Assembly: GCA_965218055.1 (NCBI GenBank)
Contig: CBDCKA010000002.1
Location: 745,619 to 809,618 of the forward strand
Reading direction: 5' to 3'
DNA: 64,000 nt
Source: Terriglobia bacterium
GTDB taxonomy: Bacteria; Acidobacteriota; Terriglobia; JAJPHL01; JAPKYU01
Part shown: piece by piece, positions 3,146 through 19,619 of the stretch
Numbering within the stretch: the first letter of the stretch is position 1
Layout of the letters: the number at the start of each line of letters is the position of its first letter
Translations under genes and position numbers: made by a program
The notes under the pieces: model-generated
What the model was told of the DNA's origin: nothing
Databases searched by the model: none
Seen by the model: only the letters and a program-made list of their open reading frames with translations

Positions 3146-6100
3146 TTACCAAAGCAATTTCAGACCAAACTGCAGGTCTCTGCCCTCAAAGGCGCTACCG
3201 ATAACTCCAAAGCCTCCGGTTCCGAAGGTGGTCCCAGGATCCCTAAAATTGGCAGTGTTGGTAAGGTTGAAAGCCTCAAAACGAAACTGCAACGTAAGTC
3301 TCTCATGCAGTGTGAAATCCCGAAGGAGGGCGAAGTCCAGATTGGTTACACCCACGCCTTGGACTATGCCACGTCCTGCGTTCCCGAACCTGGCATGCAG
3401 CGTATCAGATCCCTCTAAAAGAGGAGGCGCAACAAACGCAGATGTATTAAACCACTTGTCCGTTGCCGGATCGAAGCTACCTCTTCCAGTATTCGGGTCG
3501 CCTATAAGGTCTGGCCGAAACGAGGAGGTGCTTCCCACATTCAGACTATCGCTGGGCATACCAATCGTCAGGTATGGACCGTTCATAAGGGTGAGGATTC
3601 CATAGAAGGTCCAGTTGCCCAAGACCCGCCCCGCAAAGCTGTCGGTCAAGAACCTTTTTCCTGGCCCGAATGGAGACGTGTAACCGGGAACGAACGTGAA
3701 GCGTCCGTTAACACTGCCATCGCCCATTCCGCGGTTAAGGTCCCCCGTACTTGGTGCCCTTCCCTCGCCTCCACTCGAGCTGAGGTCAATGCTCTTGCTG
3801 AATGTGAACGCCGCGAGCAGGGACAAACCGTCTGGGCCGGGCCTCTTCCGTATGCTAGCTTCCAGCCCATGATAGGTCGCGTCCCCGTCACCACGAAACA
3901 TTAAAATAGTCGTGAAGTCCGGGAAGGGGCGCCGGGGTGTAAGCGGCTCAAGACCCCGGCCGGGAGCGGCGTCGTTGATGGTGGTCGTACTAAACTCGTT
4001 AAGCGAGCGGCTGCCCTGGTAGCCGATCTCAAAAGACATATCTTGGGTTAGCTCGCGCTGGATGGAGGCGCCCCAAGAGTGAACTACGACTCTTGGAAGG
4101 GGGCTCTGGATGCCCCAGGGATTAAACCCAGCATTAGCAAAGTCTTCTGGACTGTCGAACATGGGGTCAGGAAAGGGATTCGACATCGATAGATCTGGAA
4201 CTACCGCGGCACCGAAATTGCTCTCAAGCGCGGCATTCTGCCGGGGGGCCCCGCCCAAAAACCAGTACCCGGCGAAATACGGTTCGTTCGAATAGGCGCC
4301 ATAACCTCCGCGGATAACAGTCTTGTCACCGATGCGATACGCAATACCGAGACGCGGCAGTGGCATATCGTTCGTCATTTCAACTAGGGGAACACCCGCC
4401 TCAAAACGTCCTTCTTCCGTAGCCGGGAGGTTCGGATCGAATTGGAAGGCAGGGAAAAGCTCTCCTGTCTGATCGTTGATGTTCGCGCTCAGGCCTGAGT
4501 GGTCTACCCAAGGGCCGCGATACTCATATCGGAGCCCAAGATTGATGGTAAGTCTGTTCGTTACCTTCCAGTCGTCCTGAATGTACCAGGCATGTGTGAC
4601 CTGACTCAGGTCGCCAAAAAAAGAATCCGCGCCAAGTTCCGAACTAGTGACGTGTCCCAACAGGAAGTCGCCGAAGGCGTTCCCTGTGTAACGATCCGAG
4701 AAGTTAACGCTTGAACCTCTCGAGAAGCTATTCCAGGAGAAGTTTCTCCGAAGTTGATATCCGAGCTTGACAGTATGAGCTCCTTTAAAGAACGACAAAT
4801 TCTCCTTAATTTCTGGATAATGGCCGATCGGGGCCGCGCCATGCCAGAAGGGATCCCCCAGTCGAAGGAAGCCGGGGATGCTAACGTCCAACACCCCATC
4901 ATTATCGGCCGTACTCCGCGGAAAGCGGGGCAACCCGAGGGCCTGATTGAAGCCCTGGGGTGTTTTAGTCGCCTCCCCCAAACCAGGGGAATAGGGCCGT
5001 TTGAAGTAGTGTACGCCAAATTCGTTTATAACGGTCGGGCTGAATGTATGTGTCTGGACGAGATTGACCGCCCAGGTTCTCAGGCTGTCGGTCCTGGTGA
5101 ATACCTGAATCGCGTTAACCTGATCTATCGGGGCGGAATCCCAAATGCCGCGCATAGACCAACGATCGTTGTCCCCAGTTCTGAAGTCGATCTTGGCGAT
5201 TAGCTGGTCCTTGTCGGTTCCCGAAGTACAATCACCGCACCGAAAGTTAGTGCCGGTGCCGGTGCCGAAGTTTGGTGAGGGCCAGAATTGCAAAAACTGT
5301 TGTGAAGTGCTGTTGAGGCGATCTGCCGGAATGGTATTGTTCGGGAAGGGCGCTCCGGTTAGGGGATCAGTGACCGGGCTTGTGAAGATCCCATTCTTTT
5401 CGGCAGTCGTCGGTACGATCCCAGTAAACGACGAGAACCTTTTCTGCCTTTGGGCTTGCCAGGAAACGAAGAACCAAGCGTTGTCTCTGCCGTCGAATAC
5501 GCCGGGAATGAAGATGGGGCCTCCAACCGTCGCCCCGTACTGGTTCTGCTTGAATTCAGGGCGCTCTCCGGGATCAAAGAAATTCCGGGCATCCACGTTG
5601 TCGTTGCGAAGGAAGTTGAACACGGTGCCATGGATCAAGTTCGTACCGCTCTTGGTCACTAGGCTGACGACGCCTCCCGGCCGGATTCCGTACTCGGCTC
5701 CATAGAGCCCGGTCTTGATCGCGAACTCCTGCACCGAGTCCGGTCCCTGGGTATAGGTCATTTGGCCGTTGTTCTGCGATAGCATACTGCCATCGACCAG
5801 GACCATCGTGTCCTGGGGGCGCATCCCACGGACGTGGAAATTCGCAGCAAAGTTGTTACCGAGACGGTTGCCGCGAGCCGGGGCTATGCCCGGGGACAGC
5901 AGTACGAGAGAGCCAATCACGTCCCGCCCGTTGAGCGGAAGCCCAACGATCTTCTCGTTCTCAATGACTGTGGTCATTGTCGGAGCCTCCGTCTGCAACA
6001 GAGGAGCTTCCGCAGTGACCTCGATTTTTTCTGTCACCGCGCCGAGGGAGAGCGTGAAATCCATTCGATAGGTGCGGCCAACCTCCAGCGTGACGCCTGA

Positions 6101-6376
6101 CCGCAATTCGGTCTTAAAGCCAGCAGAGGACACTTGAATCTCGTAGGCGCCGACGGGGAGATTGGTCAGAGTGTAATCTCCAGTGTCGGTAGTGACGGTC
6201 CGGAAAACTTGGTTCGTCGCCACTTGTCTCATCTCGACTTCGACGCCGGGCACAATGGCGCCGGTCGGGTCTAGGACCCTGCCCACTACTGACGCCAAAC
6301 CAATCTGAGCTTCCGCAATCAGGGAAGATCCGAGAAATGTCAAAGCCAGAAGGACTGCAACGCTTGACCTACTCAT
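3146..6376 (-). CDS. TonB-dependent receptor-like outer-membrane protein with an N-terminal carboxypeptidase-regulatory-like domain.
   Basis: 1076 aa. It has a signal peptide and the N-terminal Ig-like pattern VGRVLDPTGAIVPGVEVEM...TDTGDYTLTNLPVGAYEI. The long beta-rich body ends in aromatic W. The architecture is typical of Acidobacteria. Confidence 0.75.
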   Translation of the reverse strand: MSRSSVAVLLALTFLGSSLIAEAQIGLASVVGRVLDPTGAIVPGVEVEMRQVATNQVFRTVTTDTGDYTLTNLPVGAYEIQVSSAGFKTELRSGVTLEVGRTYRMDFTLSLGAVTEKIEVTAEAPLLQTEAPTMTTVIENEKIVGLPLNGRDVIGSLVLLSPGIAPARGNRLGNNFAANFHVRGMRPQDTMVLVDGSMLSQNNGQMTYTQGPDSVQEFAIKTGLYGAEYGIRPGGVVSLVTKSGTNLIHGTVFNFLRNDNVDARNFFDPGERPEFKQNQYGATVGGPIFIPGVFDGRDNAWFFVSWQAQRQKRFSSFTGIVPTTAEKNGIFTSPVTDPLTGAPFPNNTIPADRLNSTSQQFLQFWPSPNFGTGTGTNFRCGDCTSGTDKDQLIAKIDFRTGDNDRWSMRGIWDSAPIDQVNAIQVFTRTDSLRTWAVNLVQTHTFSPTVINEFGVHYFKRPYSPGLGEATKTPQGFNQALGLPRFPRSTADNDGVLDVSIPGFLRLGDPFWHGAAPIGHYPEIKENLSFFKGAHTVKLGYQLRRNFSWNSFSRGSSVNFSDRYTGNAFGDFLLGHVTSSELGADSFFGDLSQVTHAWYIQDDWKVTNRLTINLGLRYEYRGPWVDHSGLSANINDQTGELFPAFQFDPNLPATEEGRFEAGVPLVEMTNDMPLPRLGIAYRIGDKTVIRGGYGAYSNEPYFAGYWFLGGAPRQNAALESNFGAAVVPDLSMSNPFPDPMFDSPEDFANAGFNPWGIQSPLPRVVVHSWGASIQRELTQDMSFEIGYQGSRSLNEFSTTTINDAAPGRGLEPLTPRRPFPDFTTILMFRGDGDATYHGLEASIRKRPGPDGLSLLAAFTFSKSIDLSSSGGEGRAPSTGDLNRGMGDGSVNGRFTFVPGYTSPFGPGKRFLTDSFAGRVLGNWTFYGILTLMNGPYLTIGMPSDSLNVGSTSSFRPDLIGDPNTGRGSFDPATDKWFNTSAFVAPPLLEGSDTLHARFGNAGRGIVQGVGVTNLDFALLRDFTLHERLTLQFRFEAFNLTNTANFRDPGTTFGTGGFGVIGSAFEGRDLQFGLKLLW

Positions 6377-6654: not shown

Positions 6655-7689
6655 ATGAAGGCAGCCGTCTGGTATGGGAAGCGTGACGTCCGCCTCGAGG
6701 AGGTGCGCGAGCCGCCGAATCCCAGCGGGGAAGACGTAGTCGTTGAAGTTAGCTGCACCGGAATCTGCGGGACTGACCTTCACGAGTATCTCGCCGGGCC
6801 GATCTTCATTCCGCCAGCCCTGAAGCGGGTGGTCCTTGGGCACGAATTCAGTGCACGGGTGACTGCTGTTGGAAAGGAAGTAACCAGGGTGAAGCTGGGC
6901 GACCGGGTCGTCGTCATCCCTCATCGCGTGTGCCGGACATGTCATTTTTGTCAACGTGGGATGCTGCAACATTGTCGGAACTTGCAACTGGTTGGGATTA
7001 CACGGGACGGCGCCTTTGCTCGCTACACCGTTGTGCGCCAGGACCAGCTGGTCCCCCTGCCAAGTACTATCACGGACGAAGTTGGCGCGCTCATCGAGCC
7101 GCTTGCGGTGACGCTGCGCGCGATGCAGTTGCCCGGTGTCCGCATTGGCGACGATGCGGTAGTTATCGGCGCCGGGCCGATCGGCCTTTGCGCCCTCGCG
7201 ACGGCGCGGGCCGCAGGCCTCCGGAACATCTTCGTCATCGAGAAGCTCCCGCGCCGGGCCGCGCTCGCACATGAGCTGGGAGCGGCCGCCGTCATCGACC
7301 CGCAGCTTGAAAATCCTGTCGACGCAGTCCGCGACCTTACCCGGGGCCGTGGCGTCGATGTCGCCTTCGAATGCGTGGGGCTGGTCGCGACCATGAATCT
7401 CGCCATCGAAGTTGTACGACCAGGCGGACTCGCTGTTATCATCGGCATCGCTGAGACAAGCGGCGACCTCAACCTTCATCGCGTAGTTGCAGGCGAGAAA
7501 GAAGTGCGCGGGTGCATTGGTTATTTCGATGGTGTGTGGGAAGCTGTTATCGACCTGCTCGCGTCCGGGCGACTCGATCCGACCCCACTCGTGACCCACC
7601 GAATCGCGGTGAACGACATTGTCGAGCAGGGCTTCCGTGCTCTCATCGAAGAGAAAGACTCGTGCGTCAAGGTTCTGGTGCACCCGTAA
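6655..7689 (+). CDS. Zinc-dependent alcohol dehydrogenase of the MDR family (threonine/sorbitol/butanediol dehydrogenase-like).
   Basis: Motifs GHEFSARV, the structural-zinc Cys cluster CRTCHFCQRGMLQHC and the Rossmann motif VIGAGPIGL. Confidence 0.85.
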   Translation: MKAAVWYGKRDVRLEEVREPPNPSGEDVVVEVSCTGICGTDLHEYLAGPIFIPPALKRVVLGHEFSARVTAVGKEVTRVKLGDRVVVIPHRVCRTCHFCQRGMLQHCRNLQLVGITRDGAFARYTVVRQDQLVPLPSTITDEVGALIEPLAVTLRAMQLPGVRIGDDAVVIGAGPIGLCALATARAAGLRNIFVIEKLPRRAALAHELGAAAVIDPQLENPVDAVRDLTRGRGVDVAFECVGLVATMNLAIEVVRPGGLAVIIGIAETSGDLNLHRVVAGEKEVRGCIGYFDGVWEAVIDLLASGRLDPTPLVTHRIAVNDIVEQGFRALIEEKDSCVKVLVHP

Positions 7690-8965: not shown

Positions 8966-9808
8966 ATGAGAATCGCAAACGTAGACGGCCGCGCCATGGC
9001 TGTCGTAGGCGAGCGGTTGATTGACATTGAGCGAGCGAGTGGCGGGAGCCTGCCATCCGATCCAATGCAGCTCCTGGCGCGCTTGGATGAGGCGCGCAAG
9101 CTCGACCTCTCGAAGGAGAAAGGGATCCCGCTGGAGGGCGCGCATCTTGGGCCGCCCGTGCCACGCCCGAGCAAGATCCTCGCCGCTGCCGGGAACTACA
9201 GCGACCACGTCAAGGAGGCCGGTGCCGAGAACCCGGGCGAACCAAACCTGTTCGCCAAGCTCCCCAGCGCTTTAGTCGGTCCGCGCGACGCAGTCAGCAT
9301 CCTGCCCGGGCGCGTTCAGATTGACTGGGAAGCTGAGCTGGTGGTGGTGATCGGCAAGCAGGCGCGCAACGTTCCCGAGGAGAAAGCCTGGTCCTATGTC
9401 GCCGGCGTGACCTGCGGCCAGGACATCTCTGATCGGGAGGAGCAGTTCCGCGCCTTTCAGCAGTACACGATGGCTAAATCGTTCAATACCTACGCGCCGA
9501 CCGGGCCATACCTTGTCACTGTCGACGAACTCAAAGACCGCGACAACGTCCCGCTGCGCTGCTACTTGAACGACGAAAAGGTGCAGGACGGCGCGACCGG
9601 AAAGCTGATCTTCTCGGTGCCGAATCTCATCGCATGGACCTCGAAGGTCTGCACGCTCGAAAGGGGCGACCTCTTTTTCACCGGCACGCCTGGCGGCGTC
9701 GGAGTTTTCCGCAAACCGCCGCGTTGGCTCAAGCCGGGTATCGTCCTGCGGACCGAGATTCCGGGCGTTGGAACAATGGAGAACCCCATAGCCGCCGCAA
9801 AGAGTTAG
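8966..9808 (+). CDS. Fumarylacetoacetate-hydrolase (FAH) family protein (2-keto-4-pentenoate hydratase / HpcE-like).
   Basis: 280 aa. Family features KILAAAGNYSDH, ELVVVIGK, CGQDISDRE and FFTGTPGGVG. Confidence 0.8.
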   Translation: MRIANVDGRAMAVVGERLIDIERASGGSLPSDPMQLLARLDEARKLDLSKEKGIPLEGAHLGPPVPRPSKILAAAGNYSDHVKEAGAENPGEPNLFAKLPSALVGPRDAVSILPGRVQIDWEAELVVVIGKQARNVPEEKAWSYVAGVTCGQDISDREEQFRAFQQYTMAKSFNTYAPTGPYLVTVDELKDRDNVPLRCYLNDEKVQDGATGKLIFSVPNLIAWTSKVCTLERGDLFFTGTPGGVGVFRKPPRWLKPGIVLRTEIPGVGTMENPIAAAKS

Positions 9809-9815
9809 GAAGAAG

Positions 9816-12212
9816 ATGGCGATCCAGGTTGACCAGAAGCTCCCGCGGTGTCTCCGCTGCGGGAAATTGGTGCATGTGCGCGACGCCGAGCGGGTCGAGT
9901 CCCGGGGTCTTCTCTTCTGCTCAAAGATATGTCGCGATGAGTACGCGGAGCTGACGCCGCACAGCGCCGAGTCTATGAGTACGGCTTCGGGGCCCGTGCC
10001 GCAGTTCCTCCCGTCAGAAGGAGAGCCCCGCAGCGACCCGTCAGGTGATCAGCAGCGCCCCTTGCGGACCGGCGGCGATGCCCGCCTCGCGCCCGGTATT
10101 GATGCAGGTCGCGGTGTCGAAGAAGCGCGCCCACGCCATTCCGAGCCCCAGCCGGGAGATGGCGCGAACTTGCGGGTCGGCATCGACGTTGGCGGGACCT
10201 TCACGGACTTGGTCCTGTTCAGTCCCACAACTCGCGAGCTACGGGTGGCGAAGGCTCCGAGTACACCCAACAACCCCATCGAAGGCGTCAGGGCTGTGAT
10301 CGACAAGGCCGGAATCCCGCTGGAAGCGATCCACACGCTGGTACACGGCACGACGGTCGGGACCAACGCGCTACTCGAGCGAAAGAAGTCGCTGCCGGCG
10401 CTGATCACGACGAAGGGTTTTCGGGATGTGGTCTTTATCCAGCGGAATAATCGAAAGCACCATTATGACCTCAGCTGGGACAAGCCGAAGCCGTTCGTTG
10501 AGCGTCGGCACTGCTACGAGGTCTCGGAGAGGCTCAACTACAAAGGCGAGGTCGTGACGCCGCTTGAGGAAGACGGCGCGCGGGCCGTCATCGCGGCGAT
10601 CAAAAAAGCTGGGATCGCGGAGATTGCCGTCTCATTCCTCTTTTCCTACGTGAACCCCGCGCACGAACTCCGCATGCGTGAGTTGATTGCCGAGGTCTAC
10701 CCGGAGGCCACTGTCTCGCTGTCCCACGACGTGTACCCGCGCTGGCGCGAGTACGACCGGGCGAGCACCGTCTTGGCCGATGCGTACCTGAAAACGCTTA
10801 TTGCAGACTATGTGGGCAATCTCGCGGGCGGGCTCCAGGCGGCAAGCGAGTCGATGAACTTCCTGATTATGAAGTCCAACGGTGGAGTGCAAGAGGCGAG
10901 TGCAGCGGCTGCGAAGCCGGTCGATCTGCTCGTCTCCGGCCCCGCTGGGGGTGTGCTGAGCGCGACCTTTTTTGGCAAGTTAACCGGACGTCCCAATCTG
11001 GTTTGTATGGACATGGGCGGGACGAGCTTCGACGTCAGTCTGATTAAGGGTGGTGAGGCAAACCGTAGGATCGATTTCGAGATCGAGTGGGGTCTGCCGG
11101 TGTTTATGCCCATGATTGACGTGCAAACGATCGGGGCCGGTGGCGGATCGGTCGGCTGGATCGACAAGGGTGGCCTACTGCGTGTTGGTCCGCGCAGTGC
11201 CGGTGCCGTCCCCGGGCCTGCGTGCTACAGGCGAGGAGGAACCGAGCCGGCCGTGACGGACGCTAATCTCGTGCTCGGACGGATCAGCCCCGATTATTTC
11301 CTGGGAGGCGAACTCTCCCTCGACGTCAGCGCCGCGCGGCGGGCCTTGGAAGGACTCGGCGCCCGGCTTAACATGGGCCTAGAGGAGGTCGCGTCTTCCG
11401 TGGTGGAGCTCATCAACTTCAACATGGTGAACGCGATCCGGCTCATCTCCATCGACCGCGGCCTCGACCCTCGCGAGTTCACTCTTTTCTCGTTCGGTGG
11501 CGCAGGTTCTCTGCACGCGGGAGCACTGGCAGACATCATCGGCATCCGCGAGGTGCTCGTTCCTATCCACCAGGGCGTCTTTTCGGCGTTTGGCCTGATC
11601 ACCGCGGACATGCGCGTTGATGAGTCCGTGACGGCGAGCTTCCGCTCGGATACGCTCGATGTCGAGCGCGTCAACGAAGTGCTCGAGCGCCTGCGCAAGC
11701 GCGCGCTCGCCCGACTTCGGGCCGATGGATATGAAGGAGCGGCTGCCCTAGAGGCTAACATCGAGATGCGCTACCTCGGACAGAACTACAGCACCGAAAT
11801 CCCGGTGCCTCTCGTCGACGGGGGCCTGGGCCATAGTGAGCTGAGCAAGGTGCTGGATGGCTTCCATGCTGAACATCGACGTCGCTACGGCTATGACATT
11901 TCGAACGAGATTGTCGAGCTCGTGCATTTCAATGTCACAGCGGTTGGCCCGACGGAAAAACCGAAAGTTCCAACGCTTGGGCGAAACGGGAAAGGGGCCG
12001 AAAAAGGGCGTCGCAAAATCTATTTCAAGGGCCATGGTTGGACCGATTCATTCGTGTACGAACGAGCTGCGCTTGGACAGGGCTCGCGGATTGAGGGTCC
12101 AGCGGTTATCGAGGAGCCCACGGCAACGACGCTTCTCCATCCGGGCCACAAGTTGGAGGTCGACGAATACGGCAACCTCGTGATGACGACGATGGCAGGA
12201 AAGGAGACCTGA
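9816..12212 (+). CDS. hyuA: Hydantoinase/oxoprolinase subunit A (HyuA family) with an in-frame 118-aa N-terminal extension carrying a TRASH/FCS-like zinc ribbon. A canonical-length protein would start at TTG 10170.
   Basis: MRVGIDVGGTFTDLVLFS follows the TTG at 10170, and the body is HyuA-like. The N-terminal extension is CLRCG-x19-FCSKIC, a C-x2-C-x19-C-x3-C pattern. ATG 9816 has an AGGAAG ribosome-binding site and the region has high-GC3 codon usage. Confidence 0.8.
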   Translation: MAIQVDQKLPRCLRCGKLVHVRDAERVESRGLLFCSKICRDEYAELTPHSAESMSTASGPVPQFLPSEGEPRSDPSGDQQRPLRTGGDARLAPGIDAGRGVEEARPRHSEPQPGDGANLRVGIDVGGTFTDLVLFSPTTRELRVAKAPSTPNNPIEGVRAVIDKAGIPLEAIHTLVHGTTVGTNALLERKKSLPALITTKGFRDVVFIQRNNRKHHYDLSWDKPKPFVERRHCYEVSERLNYKGEVVTPLEEDGARAVIAAIKKAGIAEIAVSFLFSYVNPAHELRMRELIAEVYPEATVSLSHDVYPRWREYDRASTVLADAYLKTLIADYVGNLAGGLQAASESMNFLIMKSNGGVQEASAAAAKPVDLLVSGPAGGVLSATFFGKLTGRPNLVCMDMGGTSFDVSLIKGGEANRRIDFEIEWGLPVFMPMIDVQTIGAGGGSVGWIDKGGLLRVGPRSAGAVPGPACYRRGGTEPAVTDANLVLGRISPDYFLGGELSLDVSAARRALEGLGARLNMGLEEVASSVVELINFNMVNAIRLISIDRGLDPREFTLFSFGGAGSLHAGALADIIGIREVLVPIHQGVFSAFGLITADMRVDESVTASFRSDTLDVERVNEVLERLRKRALARLRADGYEGAAALEANIEMRYLGQNYSTEIPVPLVDGGLGHSELSKVLDGFHAEHRRRYGYDISNEIVELVHFNVTAVGPTEKPKVPTLGRNGKGAEKGRRKIYFKGHGWTDSFVYERAALGQGSRIEGPAVIEEPTATTLLHPGHKLEVDEYGNLVMTTMAGKET

Positions 12213-12213
12213 T

Positions 12214-14007
12214 ATGGCCCAGCCACAAACGCGCAACGCAATCGACCAAGTCACGCTGCAAGTAGTGAACAGCTACCTGGTGACGACGGCGCGCGAAATG
12301 GGGATCGCGATGCGCAACACGGCCTACTCCCCGCTCTTCAACGAGGGCCTCGATTTCTCCTGCGCGATCTTCGATCGCCACGGTGAGATGATTGGCCAGG
12401 CGGAGTTCTGTCCAGCGCAGCTCGGGGCGATCATCTTTGTTGTGGAGTGGACAATCAACGAAATCGGCCTTGAAAATTTCCACCCAGGGGACATCGTTCT
12501 TCACAACGACCCCTTCCGGGGCGGCTGTCACTTACCGGAGCACTGTGTCATCAAGCCTGTCTTTCACGACGATGCGCTGCTCGGGTTCGTCTCCTGTATC
12601 GGACACATGACCGAGGTCGGCGGCAAGGCCCCGGGTGGCTTTCCCGGCGACGCGACCGAGGTCTTCCAGGAGGGCATCCGGTTCCCGCCGGTGAAAATCG
12701 TCGACCGGGGGCACCAAGTCGATACCGTCTGGAACATCATGTTCGCAAACGTGCGGACACCGAAAGTCTCCTACGGCGACATGATGGCGATGATCGGATC
12801 GCTCTATGTCGGCGAACGAAGCATGCTCGAACTGGCGGAGAAGTACGGCAACGACCGGTTACAAGAGATCACAGAGGCAATTAAGGACTACTCGGAGCGG
12901 CGCATGCGGGCAGAGATAACCGAGATGCCGGACGGCGTGTACGAGCTCGAGCGTTACGCCGCCGATGATGACGGAATTACCGAGGAGCCGGCGAAGATCA
13001 AGGTCAAGGTTACGATCAAAGGCGACAACATGACCGTTGACTTCACGGGGTCCGATCCCCAGCGCAAAGGCCCGATCAACTGCACCTACGGCGTCACGGC
13101 CTCGGGCACTTACAACGCGCTCCTGCACTTAACGGACTCTTCAATTCCGTCGAATCATGGTTGCTACCGACCAGTGCGCATCATCGCGCCTCCGGAAACA
13201 ATCGTAAATGTCGAGTACCCGGGTGCGAGCGTTGGCGGCAACTCGGAGATTCAGCCGCACATCGTGGATGCGGTGTTCGCCGCTCTGGCAAACGCGCTGC
13301 CGGACCGGGTTCCCGCGGAGTGCGGCGGGACGAATTCGCTTGTCTCGTTCGGAGGTATGCATCCCGACACGGGCGAGCCCTTTGCCAGTCTCGTGAACGA
13401 GGGCTGTGGCTGGGGCGGGAGGGCGACGAAGGACGGCAACAACAGCCTCTGCCAATACGTCGGCAACTGTCCCTGCCAGCCGATCGAGATTCTTGAGACC
13501 CGCTACCCCATCTTGCACGAAGCTTTCCAGATCACAGAGGGGTCCGCTGGTGCCGGTCGAAATCGCGGCGGCTTCGGCTCGTCGCGGCAGTTCCGCGTGG
13601 AATGCGACGAGTTGCGTGTTTCGGCGTTCGTCGAGCGCGCAAAGATCCCTCCGTATGGGCTTTTTGGCGGCAAGCAAGGGGGAATTGCTGGCATCGAGAT
13701 CGCCCGGAAGGACGGCGTGTTCCGGCCTCCCCGCGAGGTGGCAGGTGTCAAGTGCGACGGGAAGTTCTCCGACGTTTACTTGTACAGAGGCGATCGGGTC
13801 CGCAGCCACTGCTCGGGCGGAGCCGGCTACGGATCGCCGCTCGACCGCGAACCGGAGCGGATTGAAGAGGACGTGCGCAGCGGATTCCTAGCACGCTCTC
13901 AAGCAGAGGAGGAATACTGCGTCGTCTTCGCTGCCGACGGTGAATGCATTGACAAGGGTGCAACCGAGCGGCGCCGAAAAGAGTTGCGCACGCAGGGGGT
14001 CGAATGA
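12214..14007 (+). CDS. hyuB: Hydantoinase/oxoprolinase subunit B (HyuB family).
   Basis: 597 aa. HyuB-like N-terminus MAQPQTRNAIDQVTLQVVNSYLVTTAREMG. Start is 2 nt after the HyuA stop. Confidence 0.85.
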   Translation: MAQPQTRNAIDQVTLQVVNSYLVTTAREMGIAMRNTAYSPLFNEGLDFSCAIFDRHGEMIGQAEFCPAQLGAIIFVVEWTINEIGLENFHPGDIVLHNDPFRGGCHLPEHCVIKPVFHDDALLGFVSCIGHMTEVGGKAPGGFPGDATEVFQEGIRFPPVKIVDRGHQVDTVWNIMFANVRTPKVSYGDMMAMIGSLYVGERSMLELAEKYGNDRLQEITEAIKDYSERRMRAEITEMPDGVYELERYAADDDGITEEPAKIKVKVTIKGDNMTVDFTGSDPQRKGPINCTYGVTASGTYNALLHLTDSSIPSNHGCYRPVRIIAPPETIVNVEYPGASVGGNSEIQPHIVDAVFAALANALPDRVPAECGGTNSLVSFGGMHPDTGEPFASLVNEGCGWGGRATKDGNNSLCQYVGNCPCQPIEILETRYPILHEAFQITEGSAGAGRNRGGFGSSRQFRVECDELRVSAFVERAKIPPYGLFGGKQGGIAGIEIARKDGVFRPPREVAGVKCDGKFSDVYLYRGDRVRSHCSGGAGYGSPLDREPERIEEDVRSGFLARSQAEEEYCVVFAADGECIDKGATERRRKELRTQGVE

Positions 14008-15820: not shown

Positions 15821-16798
15821 GTGAATATAAGCGCCGAGAGGATGTGCGAACTCTATCGCACGATGTTGACGATACGGCGCTTCGAAGAGAAGGTCTCGTC
15901 GCTCTTCGCCCGTGGCCGGATGCCGGGTTTCACCCATTCGTACATTGGTATGGAGGCCGTCGCTGCCGGTGTATGTGTCGGGCTACGAGCGACGGACAAG
16001 GTTACTTCCACTCACCGCGGACATGGTCATGCCGTTGCGAAGGGGCTCGATTTGTGTGCCCTGATGGCCGAGCTCTATGGGAAGCGCACCGGCATCTGCA
16101 AGGGACGGGGTGGCTCGATGCACTTTGCCGACGTTCAGCGCGGTCTGCTTGGCGGGAACGGCATCGTTTCCGGGGGCCTCCCGATGGCGACGGGCGCGGC
16201 GCTCGCCAACAAGCTCGATGGCCGCGACGATGTTGTCGTTGCGTTTGCCGGCGAGGGTGGCGTCAATCAGGGGACGTTCCATGAATCGCTCAACCTTGCC
16301 GCGATCTGGACGCTCCCTGTTCTCTATGTCATCGAAAACAATATCTACACCGAGTACTGTCACTATCGGACGGTCACTGCCATCGACAAGCTTTCCGACC
16401 GGGCCGCCGCATACGGGATGCCGGGCATCATGGTCGACGGCCAAGACGTCCTGGCGATGCACGAGGCAACGACCGAGGCTGTGGAACGTGCCCGCACCGG
16501 CGGAGGCCCCACCCTGCTGGAGGCGCGGACTTATCGCTTCCGGGGACACCATGAGGGCGAGGACCAGATCCTTGGCCGCAACGTCTACCGCACGGTTGAC
16601 GAGATTGAGGAACAGCGGCGGCTTCGCGATCCGATCACTCTGTTGAAAACGCGGATGTCAGATTGCGCTGGCGACGACTTCTTCGCCCGTACAGAAGAGC
16701 AGATCAAAGGGGCCATAACGCGGGCGGTCGAGTCAGCCGAGGCAAGCGAACTGCCGTCGCCGAGCGAGGCAGGCGAGTTCGTCTACACGTCGTCCTGA
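15821..16798 (+). CDS. Thiamine-diphosphate-dependent 2-oxoacid/acetoin dehydrogenase E1 component alpha subunit.
   Basis: 325 aa. TPP-binding GDG-type region VVAFAGEGGVNQGTFHESLNLAAIWTLPVLYVIENN, consistent with the E1-alpha family. Confidence 0.85.
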   Translation: MNISAERMCELYRTMLTIRRFEEKVSSLFARGRMPGFTHSYIGMEAVAAGVCVGLRATDKVTSTHRGHGHAVAKGLDLCALMAELYGKRTGICKGRGGSMHFADVQRGLLGGNGIVSGGLPMATGAALANKLDGRDDVVVAFAGEGGVNQGTFHESLNLAAIWTLPVLYVIENNIYTEYCHYRTVTAIDKLSDRAAAYGMPGIMVDGQDVLAMHEATTEAVERARTGGGPTLLEARTYRFRGHHEGEDQILGRNVYRTVDEIEEQRRLRDPITLLKTRMSDCAGDDFFARTEEQIKGAITRAVESAEASELPSPSEAGEFVYTSS

Positions 16799-16956: not shown

Positions 16957-17703
16957 GTGCCTGCAGTATCTGCGACGCAGATCGCTCGCGCGACCGATCT
17001 GGTCGGACAACTTGAGCGAGAGATCGAGCCGTTCGTTGCACAGGTGGCCGACGGGCCTTTCGTCCGGGCCGTGCTGGACGGCAGCTTTCCACTTGATGGC
17101 ATCCGGTTTGTGCACATGAATCACTACCACCTGATCGTGAACGACATGGCCAATCTCAATGTCTACGTGGCCAAGGCGCGCGACGAAGAGGAAATGCTCT
17201 TCTTCCATTTCATGGCGGCTGAGGAGAAGAACCACTTTGAGTCAGTATTCCTCCTGGACGCGGGTCTCGGGCTGGATGCCCAGGCGGTTCGCGCCTTCGA
17301 GCCGCACCCAGGCTGTCTTATACGAACTAACTACTTCTCGCGGCTCGCGCAGTATGGCTCCCCGGGCGAGGTGGCGCTGGCGATCCTTCTCAACTTTCCA
17401 GTTTGGGCTGGCGGCGCGAAGCGCGAGGCACAGGGCCTGAAGCAGCACTACGGGATGGGCAATCCGGTTCCAGGCACGGACAAGTACGACACGGACATAC
17501 TCGACCGTTTCGAGGGCGCCACCGCCGGCTTCCGCGAGCAGGCCCTCAGGATCATTGCTCGCGACCTGGCCGACCCGTTTAACGAGGTGCGGCTGCGCCG
17601 CGCCGGGCTCTGGGCAGCCGAGTGCGAGGCGATTGTGTGGCAGTTTTACTACGAAGAGGGTGCTAAGTGCGGGAGCTCCGACTCGGCTAGGGTGCCACGA
17701 TGA
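16957..17703 (+). CDS. TenA/PqqC-fold (heme-oxygenase-like superfamily) protein of unknown function, paralog 1.
   Basis: GPFVRAVLDGSFPLDGIRFVHMNHYHLIVND aligns with the TenA N-terminal helix HPFVQGIGDGTLPIDRFKYYVLQDSYYL. The thiaminase-II catalytic Cys region reads ILLNFPVWAGG, so no Cys is present. Confidence 0.5.
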   Translation: MPAVSATQIARATDLVGQLEREIEPFVAQVADGPFVRAVLDGSFPLDGIRFVHMNHYHLIVNDMANLNVYVAKARDEEEMLFFHFMAAEEKNHFESVFLLDAGLGLDAQAVRAFEPHPGCLIRTNYFSRLAQYGSPGEVALAILLNFPVWAGGAKREAQGLKQHYGMGNPVPGTDKYDTDILDRFEGATAGFREQALRIIARDLADPFNEVRLRRAGLWAAECEAIVWQFYYEEGAKCGSSDSARVPR

Positions 17704-18464
17704 TCATTCCTGCGGATCAGCTCGCGCGCGCGGAGCGCCTCGTGGAGTCGCTCCAGGGTGAGTTGGGCTCGTTTGTCACTGAAGTCGAAGACGGGCCTTT
17801 CGCGCGTGGCGTTGCTGACGGCTCATTTCCTGTTGAGGGAATCAAGTTCTTCGTGGAGCAGACATACCAGTTGGTGATGAACGACATGGGGAATCTCTCG
17901 CTCTATGTGGCGAAGGGCCGCGATGAGAGCGAGGTTGACTTCTTCCTTTTCATGGCTGTGGCGGAGAAGCTCATGCTCGATTCACTTTACTTGCTCATCG
18001 ATGCGATTGGCATCCGGCGTACCGAGCTTCACTCCTCCGAGCCTCACATCCGTACGTCCTTCCGGACGAACTACTTCACCCGGCTCGCACTTTTCCATCT
18101 GCCCGGTGAAATAGCACTGGCAATCCTGATCAACTTTCCCGTTTGGGCAGGCGGCGCGCGCCGGGTCAGCGCCGGAATGAAGCAGCATTATGGCCTGGGG
18201 AAGGCGGTCAAGGGGACGGAACTGATCGATACGGACGTCCTGGACCGGTTTAGCCAAGCGACAAAGGGCTTCTCCGACATGGCCGTGCGCATTGTCGCCG
18301 CAGACCTGACAGATGGGCAGGCAGAGCGACGGATGCGCCAGGTCGCGAAGCTCGCCGTTGAGTACGAGGCGATGATCTGGTCGAACTACTATGTCGAGGG
18401 CATGAAACGAGCTGGTCTGGAACCGTCCTTGTTGCGCCCAGGCGAGAGTCGTGGTCGGTCATGA
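17700..18464 (+). CDS. TenA/PqqC-fold protein, paralog 2 of the preceding gene.
   Basis: Clearly similar to paralog 1 (GPFARGVADGSFPVEGIKFF, ILINFPVWAGGARR, KQHYGLG). ATGA overlap with paralog 1. Confidence 0.5.
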   Translation: MIIPADQLARAERLVESLQGELGSFVTEVEDGPFARGVADGSFPVEGIKFFVEQTYQLVMNDMGNLSLYVAKGRDESEVDFFLFMAVAEKLMLDSLYLLIDAIGIRRTELHSSEPHIRTSFRTNYFTRLALFHLPGEIALAILINFPVWAGGARRVSAGMKQHYGLGKAVKGTELIDTDVLDRFSQATKGFSDMAVRIVAADLTDGQAERRMRQVAKLAVEYEAMIWSNYYVEGMKRAGLEPSLLRPGESRGRS

Positions 18465-18563: not shown

Positions 18564-19619
18564 GTGGAGAGCATGAAGTACGGTGAAAGCGAGTCGGTCG
18601 CGACATCCTCTAATCTGGCCGACGCATCCGCCGGCACGTCGACCCGAACCCTGAGCTACCTGCAGGCATTAAAAGAGGCCTTGCGTGAGGAGATGCGGCG
18701 TGACGAGAAGGTGGTCATTCTTGGCGAAGACGTCGAAGTTGGCGGAGCTCTGAGCATTCTGACCGGTCTCACTGCTGAATTTGGCACCGAGCGGGTACGC
18801 AACACGCCCATCTCCGAAGCCGCCTTCGTTGGCGCCGCAATCGGGCTCGCGGCAAGTGGCTACCGGCCTGTTGTCGACCTGATGTTCTCGCCGTTCATGT
18901 GGTGCGCAATGGACCAGTGCTGTAACCAGGCGGCAAAATGGCGCTACATGACGGGCGGGCAGTTCTCACTGCCCATCGTCTACCGAATGGCGACGGGGCA
19001 GCTCGGTGGCGAGGCGGCCGCACAACACACCTGTAGCATCTACAGTCAGTTCATGCAGGTACCAGGACTCAAGATCGTTATCCCGGCAAACGCACATGAT
19101 GCGAAAGGTTTGTTGAAGACCGCAGTCCGTGATCCCGACCCCGTGCTCTTCTTCGAGGTGACACGTCTTAACGGAATAAAGGGACCAGTGCCGGAGGCGG
19201 ACTATATCGTGCCATTCGGCGTCGCGAATGTGCTGCGCGCGGGCCGCGATGTGACGATCGTCGGGATCGGATACATGGCTACCGAGGCAGTGCGAGCGGC
19301 TGAAATCCTGGAAAACGAGGGTGTGTCGGCGGAGGTGATCGACCCCCGGACGCTTGTCCCGCTGGACATCGACACAATCTTGAAGTCGGTCCAAAAGACC
19401 CACCGCCTCGTCGTGGCGGACGAGGCGACACCCATGGCATCCGCCGCTAGCGAGATTGTTGCATGTGTGGCCGAGCTTGCTCTCGAATTCCTCGACGTAC
19501 ACCCTGCCCGCGTATGCGCCCTGAATGTGCCGACTCCATTTAGCCCGGTGCTCGAGCGCGCCGCCCTTCCGGATGCCGGGCGAATCGTAGCGGCTGTACA
19601 CAAACAGTTGGGCATGTGA
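18564..19619 (+). CDS. TPP-dependent dehydrogenase E1 component beta subunit (transketolase-like C-terminal).
   Basis: 351 aa. E1-beta hallmarks EDVEVGGALSILTGLTAEFGTERVRNTPISEAAFVGAAIGLAASGYRPVV and PLDIDTIL. Confidence 0.85.
   Translation: MESMKYGESESVATSSNLADASAGTSTRTLSYLQALKEALREEMRRDEKVVILGEDVEVGGALSILTGLTAEFGTERVRNTPISEAAFVGAAIGLAASGYRPVVDLMFSPFMWCAMDQCCNQAAKWRYMTGGQFSLPIVYRMATGQLGGEAAAQHTCSIYSQFMQVPGLKIVIPANAHDAKGLLKTAVRDPDPVLFFEVTRLNGIKGPVPEADYIVPFGVANVLRAGRDVTIVGIGYMATEAVRAAEILENEGVSAEVIDPRTLVPLDIDTILKSVQKTHRLVVADEATPMASAASEIVACVAELALEFLDVHPARVCALNVPTPFSPVLERAALPDAGRIVAAVHKQLGM

Follow-up and report, generated by a model that had tools for sequence, protein, structure and literature searches.

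In a 64,000-nucleotide (nt) stretch of DNA from a Terriglobia bacterium (assembly GCA_965218055.1, contig CBDCKA010000002.1, positions 745,619-809,618, forward strand; hereafter the window, with positions counted from its first nucleotide), the open reading frame (ORF) of hyuA begins with a small ribbon module carrying four cysteines (Cys4), which in most relatives is encoded by a separate gene directly upstream of hyuA. The translated ORF is open for 798 codons (9816..12212, + strand) and consists of the ribbon, a linker and the core of HyuA, the ATP-binding alpha subunit of the hydantoinase/oxoprolinase family, and it is followed by the gene of the beta subunit, HyuB. Comparison with relatives indicates, with high confidence, that the N-terminal extension is a partner that normally stands alone and whose fusion to HyuA has been maintained. 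The ribbon itself is probably a zinc-stabilised, protein-binding accessory subunit of HyuA/HyuB.

The ribbon module and its family

The ribbon module covers residues 1-46 (9816..9953, + strand) and comprises an I3-Q4…Q7 motif, the Cys4 site (C12/C15/C35/C39; 9849-9932, + strand) and a helix containing RDEYAEL. Residues 12-39, CLRCGKLVHVRDAERVESRGLLFCSKIC, form the pattern C-x2-C-x19-C-x3-C with an internal F-C-S, as had been read in the first-pass annotation of this DNA. The Cys motif of TRASH domains is reportedly C-x2-C-x19-22-C-x3-C, in the form attributed to Ettema et al. in 2003.

An exhaustive HMMER family search, in which a two-sequence profile was compared with 1.84 billion cluster representatives, matched 33 proteins, nearly all of them free-standing and 53-75 amino acids (aa) long. 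A profile word search added 64 proteins of 51-109 aa, each labelled 'hypothetical', of which some bear a precomputed match to DUF7576 (PF24461). The N-terminal ~46 aa of the ORF are thus a member of an uncharacterised family whose other proteins, about 60-90 in number, are small (51-109 aa) and free-standing. The scan of genome contigs with the two-sequence ribbon alignment gave no matches, the metagenome scan for the ribbon returned just three loci, and a word-index homology search with the 118-aa extension gave a single match (P0001); the last search missed the window's own cluster, so its negatives are uninformative.

The family signature is M-x-IQI-x-Q…C-x2-C-G…[FLV]C[ST]-x2-C-x-[DE]E. Alignment of the family showed that I3, Q4, Q7, C12, C15, G16, C35 and C39 are invariant and E42 nearly so, while the middle Cys spacing ranges from x19 to x24 and the C-terminal tails are variable. 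The ribbon of the window has the full set of family-invariant residues and the same position as in its relatives, but it is fused and not free-standing. As the core of a conserved protein family in which all four Cys are invariant, the motif is far beyond chance. Every family member opens with M-[AP]-IQ, and ATG 9816 is therefore the true start, in agreement with the earlier statement that the frame is open from this codon. The gene upstream encodes a 280-aa protein of the fumarylacetoacetate-hydrolase family (FAH; 8966..9808, + strand; Pfam FAA_hydrolase, E = 1e-60) and ends with the stop TAG at 9806-9808. The AGGAAG Shine-Dalgarno-like motif is present (9807..9812, + strand) and comparable purine-rich motifs precede the ribbon-gene ATG in relatives; it had been placed 7 nt after the FAH stop, a gap that belongs to the ATG, as the motif itself overlaps the stop and ends 3 nt before ATG 9816.

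At the family level, the earlier assignment to TRASH/zf-FCS and to an L24e-like fold is supported. DUF7576 was the best-matching Pfam model, recovering 27 of 28 family members at E <= 0.1 (best 1.2e-6), with residues 7-44 of the ribbon aligned to model positions 15-59. Sub-threshold matches were found to zf-FCS (10/28; best E = 9.8e-4), TRASH_HVO_1752_C (PF24273; 6/28) and YHS (PF04945; 1/28). Comparison of the family profile with the PDB matched archaeal and eukaryotic ribosomal eL24/L24e (E = 5.8e-5), aligned over both Cys pairs, and the ribosomal proteins L24e/eL24/Rlp24 are the nearest relatives of the ribbon in both sequence and fold. AlphaFold2 (AF2) modelling of aa 1-60 predicted a beta-hairpin and a helix, with a predicted local distance difference test score (pLDDT) of 86-90 for the core. 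In the model of the full 798-aa protein, which the first-pass annotation had proposed, the ribbon core was likewise confident (pLDDT 82-91; beta-hairpin 27-34, helix 37-46). The invariant IQIxQ peptide, which lies outside the stretch matched by DUF7576, is a family-specific addition to the TRASH-like ribbon. The four Cys would bind a transition metal, to judge from their invariance and from the precedent of L24e. As a separate observation, the 273-aa protein P0024 carries the same IQIxQ ribbon at its C-terminus; its N-terminal part looks, by reading alone, like an FCD/GntR-type regulator domain, and the protein is either a further fusion or a run-on gene call.

Linkage to hyuA-hyuB and origin of the fusion

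The genomic context of the separate ribbon gene was established from 12 distinct neighbourhoods, 8 read from DNA and 4 from stored gene calls; loci with this context are L001/L006, L003-5, L007, L008, the P0003 contig, L012, L013/L014, L015, L016/L017, the P0082 contig, L018, L019, L022 and L029. All 12 neighbourhoods showed the order ribbon gene, hyuA, hyuB, and in each related locus that extended far enough, the gene after hyuA was hyuB. The gene before the ribbon varies, being FAH (L001/L006, L007, L008 and L012), an ABC permease, integrases or nothing, and the constant partner is therefore hyuA-hyuB. The TGA of the ribbon gene either overlaps the hyuA ATG (ATGA) or precedes the start of hyuA by a few nt, ~15 at most, which is the usual signature of translational coupling. 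One possibility offered in the first-pass annotation was chance read-through from a small TRASH protein that is separate: the separate protein is borne out in these neighbourhoods, while chance read-through is contradicted by the fusions described below. Orthologues lacking the extension had also been proposed as evidence against it, a test that is inapplicable as written: the HyuA of unfused orthologues is indeed without the extension, yet a homologous ribbon is encoded there by a separate gene.

The converse test, with 80 HyuA loci sampled from GTDB species representatives, found the ribbon gene only in 3 HyuA loci with at least 62% identity to the window and in none of the 76 with 46% identity or less. 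The ribbon is therefore an accessory specific to one HyuA/HyuB subfamily. In a locus of an uncultured bacterium (metagenome-assembled genome, MAG; L020, CAZNSX010000002.1), whose HyuA/HyuB pair shows 45-47% identity, a different TRASH-like small ORF (6892-7068; …CHCCGRMIPAKPLKKKIKGKERLFCSREC…; family-profile E = 4e-5) lies directly after hyuB, and this downstream position suggests more than one recruitment of TRASH-type partners.

The closest unfused syntenic operon was found in a Thermoleophilia MAG (L012), which has the same order as the window (ADH, FAH, ribbon, HyuA, HyuB, 2-hydroxyacid dehydrogenase, SDR, E1) and encodes the ribbon as a separate gene of 67 aa. At the junction, L012 reads GGCGCGATGAACCTGCGC (GGCGCG-ATG-AAC-CTG) and the window reads GGCGCG---AACTTGCGG (GGCGCG-AAC-TTG); the window is thus without the ATG and the overlapping TGA that unfused relatives have, and it holds ~150 nt more than L012 between ribbon and HyuA. 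No origin of this extra DNA was detectable, and neither the rest of the window nor the relatives' loci examined contain a repeat or copy of the linker. A degenerate duplication of the hyuA 5' end was considered as its source (ARLAPGIDAG, 9954-10139, against ANLRVGIDVG, 10164-10193) and was set aside as possible but unproven, with p = 0.025 in a protein shuffle and no significance at the DNA level. A GGGAG precedes both an out-of-frame ATG (10159) and the in-frame TTG at 10170, which encodes L119; this region (10154..10172, + strand) is a remnant of the old hyuA ribosome-binding site. The HyuA core spans aa 119-798 (10170..12212, + strand), and its Hydant_A_N match starts at aa 120. This agrees with the first-pass reading of a canonical HyuA from TTG 10170, as L119 lies where unfused homologues start. 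Use of this TTG as an internal start in the window is possible but unproven. Several fused homologues have no M, V or L at the old HyuA start (P0093, ..GATSRIGIDVGG; another, ..GRKWRVGVDVGG), and in these HyuA can therefore be made only as the fusion.

The fusion is shared by relatives of the window, and eight further protein clusters (73-95% identity, 782-798 aa) carry it. Its own 90% cluster has five distinct members, all of 798 aa, from at least four ENA assemblies plus one NCBI record, and L009, L010 and L011 carry the same operon as the window. A deeper fused clade of seven clusters has ribbon, linker and HyuA in each, with 73-85% identity to the window: P0093 (85%; 798 aa, linker 72 aa), P0094 (77%; 789 aa, linker 63 aa), P0095 (75%; 784 aa, linker 58 aa), P0096 (74%; 798 aa, linker 70 aa), P0097 (74%; 785 aa, linker 59 aa), P0098 (74%; 786 aa, linker 61 aa) and P0099 (73%; 782 aa, linker 56 aa). 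The seven linker lengths, from 56 to 72 aa, are all in frame, and several independent indels therefore all preserved the frame. Identity to the window was 70-93% in the ribbon, where all invariant residues are kept, and 79-96% in the HyuA core, while in the linker it was 14-42% outside the 90% cluster and 82% for P0036 inside it. The ribbon has changed at about the same slow pace as the enzyme core, the linker almost freely. Fused proteins are known from Logan, JGI and ENA sources. Apart from this clade, P0168 (733 aa, 55% identity) has a ribbon from a different subgroup, which a 6-aa linker connects to HyuA with the Met retained (…AGGRMTYRVGIDVGG); it is probably a second, independent and recent fusion that arose by a simple frameshift in the tail.

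The linker of the window (72 aa; 9954..10169, + strand) is rich in Gly, Ser, Ala, Arg and Pro. Its GC content at the three codon positions (0.78/0.64/0.69) is not typically coding, in contrast to that of the ribbon part (0.67/0.39/0.78; 9816-9953), which resembles the neighbouring genes; the GC-rich third positions claimed earlier for the whole extension therefore hold for the ribbon and fail for the linker. Only the fusion frame is open through the linker, the other two frames holding one and two stops. Compared with L009 and L011, the linker of the window has diverged by 10-12% at the nt level against 3% in flanking DNA, with the codon positions equally hit and with no indels or stops, and AF2 gave pLDDT below 50 for aa 50-114, which predicts disorder. 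Given this fast, even divergence and the predicted disorder, the linker is a nearly unconstrained tether whose sole conserved property is an open reading frame. A terminator, a promoter, an unusual or structured RNA, an Rfam family and a tRNA were sought in or near the linker and none was found. Within the linker, a 52-nt island (10023-10074), encoding EPRSDPSGDQQRPLRTG, is identical among the window, L009, L010 and L011, and the peptide PSGDQQR is found again in P0093; the island may be a short linear motif or an element that acts at the nucleotide level.

Proposed role of the ribbon and rival explanations

The strict gene linkage, the coupling signature and the conserved, possibly recurrent, fusion lead us to propose that the ribbon is a physical partner of the enzyme. 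Fusions of operon-partner domains are well known, as are small zinc subunits within this enzyme superfamily. In the proposed course of events, the ribbon, usually the product of a separate gene directly upstream of hyuA and translationally coupled to it in one HyuA/HyuB subfamily, was joined in frame to HyuA in this lineage after loss of the ATGA stop/start overlap, and the dispensable ribbon tail together with the old intergenic junction became the disordered tether of 56-72 aa. The four Cys would hold a structural Zn2+, and the ribbon with its invariant IQIxQ peptide probably docks on the HyuA/HyuB complex as a module for protein-protein contact, the fusion merely ensuring 1:1 stoichiometry and proximity. 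Such a role would be analogous to that of the gamma subunit of the acetone (AcxC) and acetophenone (Apc-gamma) carboxylases, a small Cys4 zinc subunit whose metal site, distant from the active site, was considered structural (PMC5214803, PMC5543143). While the fusion, its conservation, the family, the gene linkage and the class of fold are shown by the data, we infer that the ribbon binds zinc, that it associates physically with HyuA/HyuB and that its role lies in structure or assembly; for this role, as opposed to regulation, the chances appear evenly divided.

Several observations weigh against this interpretation. The ribbon sequence of the window taken alone falls below every Pfam and NCBIfam threshold, with 12.9-14.5 bits for zf-FCS (PF06467; cut-off 22.4), 14.8 bits (118 aa) or 17.3 bits (63 aa) for DUF7576 (cut-off 27) and 16.6 bits for the NCBIfam model PP0621_fam (cut-off 45). 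The N-terminal IQIxQ peptide has low confidence in the monomer AF2 model (pLDDT 37), and the full-length model gives per-residue confidence only, which is uninformative on the docking of the ribbon to HyuA. DNA of the fused clade comes from the closest relatives only, the conservation of the frame at greater depth resting on predicted proteins, and P0168 may instead be an assembly frameshift. With respect to the carboxylases, the gamma-subunit cysteines (C22, C25, C75 and C78) form pairs ~50 residues apart (PMC5214803), a spacing that differs from that of the ribbon, and the gamma subunits mainly contact the HyuB-like subunit and not the HyuA-like one (PMC5543143, PMC5214803). The ribbon had no Acetone_carb_G Pfam match, and no Acx or Apc chain appeared among its PDB sequence or fold matches.

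In the principal alternative, the ribbon would serve as a metal sensor or metallochaperone, reversibly binding a transition metal (Cu, Zn, Cd or Ni) and either switching the enzyme on or off or delivering the catalytic metal of HyuB. TRASH/YHS domains have been proposed to act in metal sensing and trafficking, a YHS-adenylyl cyclase fusion is a Cu2+ switch (PMC4626032), HyuB-type subunits have a metal at their catalytic site, which in CapB was modelled as Zn (PMC8453981), and the four Cys of the ribbon are invariant. However, an all-Cys4 site in a treble-clef/ribbon fold is a classic structural zinc site, metal-resistance or transport genes accompany the ribbon in none of the loci examined, and the invariance of the non-Cys residues I3, Q4, Q7, G16 and E42 suggests a conserved protein interface beyond the metal site alone. 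The first-pass annotation had suggested a metal-sensing or regulatory module fused to HyuA; the fusion is upheld, but no result obtained here is specific to sensing, and we regard this alternative as unlikely.

Less probable still, at roughly the level of an outside chance, is a neutral or incidental fusion, in which HyuA would be translated from the internal TTG 10170, the ribbon would act alone and the fused frame would be kept by descent only. This explanation accords with the roughly neutral rate of the linker, its lack of third-position bias and its non-coding-like composition, with the retention of GGGAG and TTG in the window and L009-L011, and with an estimate that about a quarter of random 72-codon stretches would be open at this GC content. 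It is contradicted by the seven linker lengths that all stay in frame, without stops despite the low linker identity, by the members that lack any possible start codon at the HyuA N-terminus, and by purifying selection on the ribbon that continues after fusion.

That the ribbon binds RNA in the manner of L24e, as a translational autoregulator or coupling factor for the hyuA-hyuB mRNA, is very improbable. Its closest relatives are indeed ribosomal and the separate gene is always translationally coupled to hyuA, but the covalent joining to the enzyme throughout one clade, with a probable second and independent case, suits a protein partner far better; moreover, there is neither a conserved RNA structure nor an Rfam match at the junction, and the conserved family core, as read from the alignment, has no obvious concentration of basic residues. 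Finally, a sequencing or assembly artefact, an indel joining two ORFs, might be suspected because the window comes from a metagenome assembly and P0168, a single protein, might have arisen in that way, but it is effectively refuted, as the 798-aa ORF is shared by independent assemblies and further fused proteins come from several sources.

Among these explanations, an accessory subunit bound to HyuA/HyuB is thus the one preferred. A bolder extension of it, for which the odds are rather poor, is that this hydrolase-type HyuA/HyuB subfamily is a three-component enzyme, in which a convergently recruited TRASH-type ribbon is needed for assembly or for gating activity by metal or redox state. If that were true, the natural fusions would serve as a Rosetta stone, and recombinant HyuAB without the ribbon would be inactive or unstable. 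The strict linkage and the repeated covalent fusion suggest a practical rule, namely to co-express the ~50-aa ribbon whenever this HyuAB subfamily is expressed. ATP-dependent enzymes of the hydantoinase, lactamase and oxoprolinase type are of biocatalytic interest for the opening of lactam and hydantoin rings and are usually treated as two-subunit enzymes, and the fusions argue for a third subunit. Identified here are an uncharacterised small-protein family, its exclusive tie to one HyuAB subfamily and its natural fusions; through the association with HyuAB, an uncharacterised group of small bacterial proteins resembling DUF7576 acquires its first functional context, and the junction is a clean example of a 4-nt ATGA overlap collapsing into a domain fusion with a disordered tether. 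Literature searches combining TRASH or zinc ribbon with hydantoinase found no paper, and a search on DUF7576 found no function or publication.

Locus context and comparison with known systems

The enzyme to which the ribbon is fused was assigned by its domains. HyuA matched Hydant_A_N (184.7 bits), Hydantoinase_A (318.1) and Hydant_A_C (59.9), all above the Pfam cut-offs, and HyuB (597 aa; 12214..14007, + strand), which starts 2 nt past the hyuA stop, matched Hydantoinase_B (E = 6e-174). The best NCBIfam match of HyuA was caprolactamase alpha (555.5 bits), and HyuB scored 357.1 bits for caprolactamase beta against 125 bits for an acetophenone carboxylase subunit; both caprolactamase scores lie far under the equivalog cut-off of 1000. 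By these scores the pair belongs to the same superfamily as caprolactamase without being an equivalog, and stands nearer to caprolactamase than to the carboxylases. The operon includes Zn-ADH, SDR, RidA, FAH, 2-hydroxyacid dehydrogenase and E1/E2 genes.

Directly upstream of the operon, on the - strand, lies an ORF for a 1,076-aa outer-membrane receptor (3146-6376; CarboxypepD_reg, Plug and OMP_b-brl_4). This TonB-type receptor gene implies a diderm host, whereas the Thermoleophilia MAG with the closest unfused syntenic operon belongs to the Actinomycetota; the operon may have been transferred horizontally. The window also holds genes of a 2-oxoacid dehydrogenase-like complex, E1-alpha (15821-16798) and E1-beta (18564-19619), between which sit two adjacent genes of the TENA/THI-4/PQQC family (16957-17703 and 17700-18464). 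The Thermoleophilia locus likewise has two TENA-family genes, adjoining an E1-beta-like (transketolase-domain) gene.

With the TRASH/zf-FCS/YHS superfamily, whose prototype is archaeal L24e, the ribbon shares the Cys spacing, the F-C-S and the hairpin-plus-helix model; L24e is itself described as a single TRASH domain with four metal-binding Cys (PMC4626032). Fusion to an enzyme, as seen for the ribbon of the window, is also known for the YHS domain of the M. phlei adenylyl cyclase. The ribbon differs from the rest of the superfamily in being strictly tied to hyuA-hyuB and not to metal transporters, regulators or the ribosome.

In their alpha and beta subunits, CapAB caprolactamase, N-methylhydantoinase and HyuAB have the same three plus one Pfam domains. 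The characterised CapAB-type enzymes are described as two-subunit, without a zinc-ribbon partner (PMC8453981), and the hydrolase-type branch ('Hyd') has been stated to be without gamma orthologues (PMC5214803). The gamma subunits of the carboxylases are larger than the ribbon (AcxC ~20 kDa, PMC5543143) and are not homologous to it. The likeness lies in their place in the enzyme, as the gamma subunits are small Cys4 zinc accessory subunits, and the enzymes that contain them are composed of a HyuA-like and a HyuB-like subunit besides.

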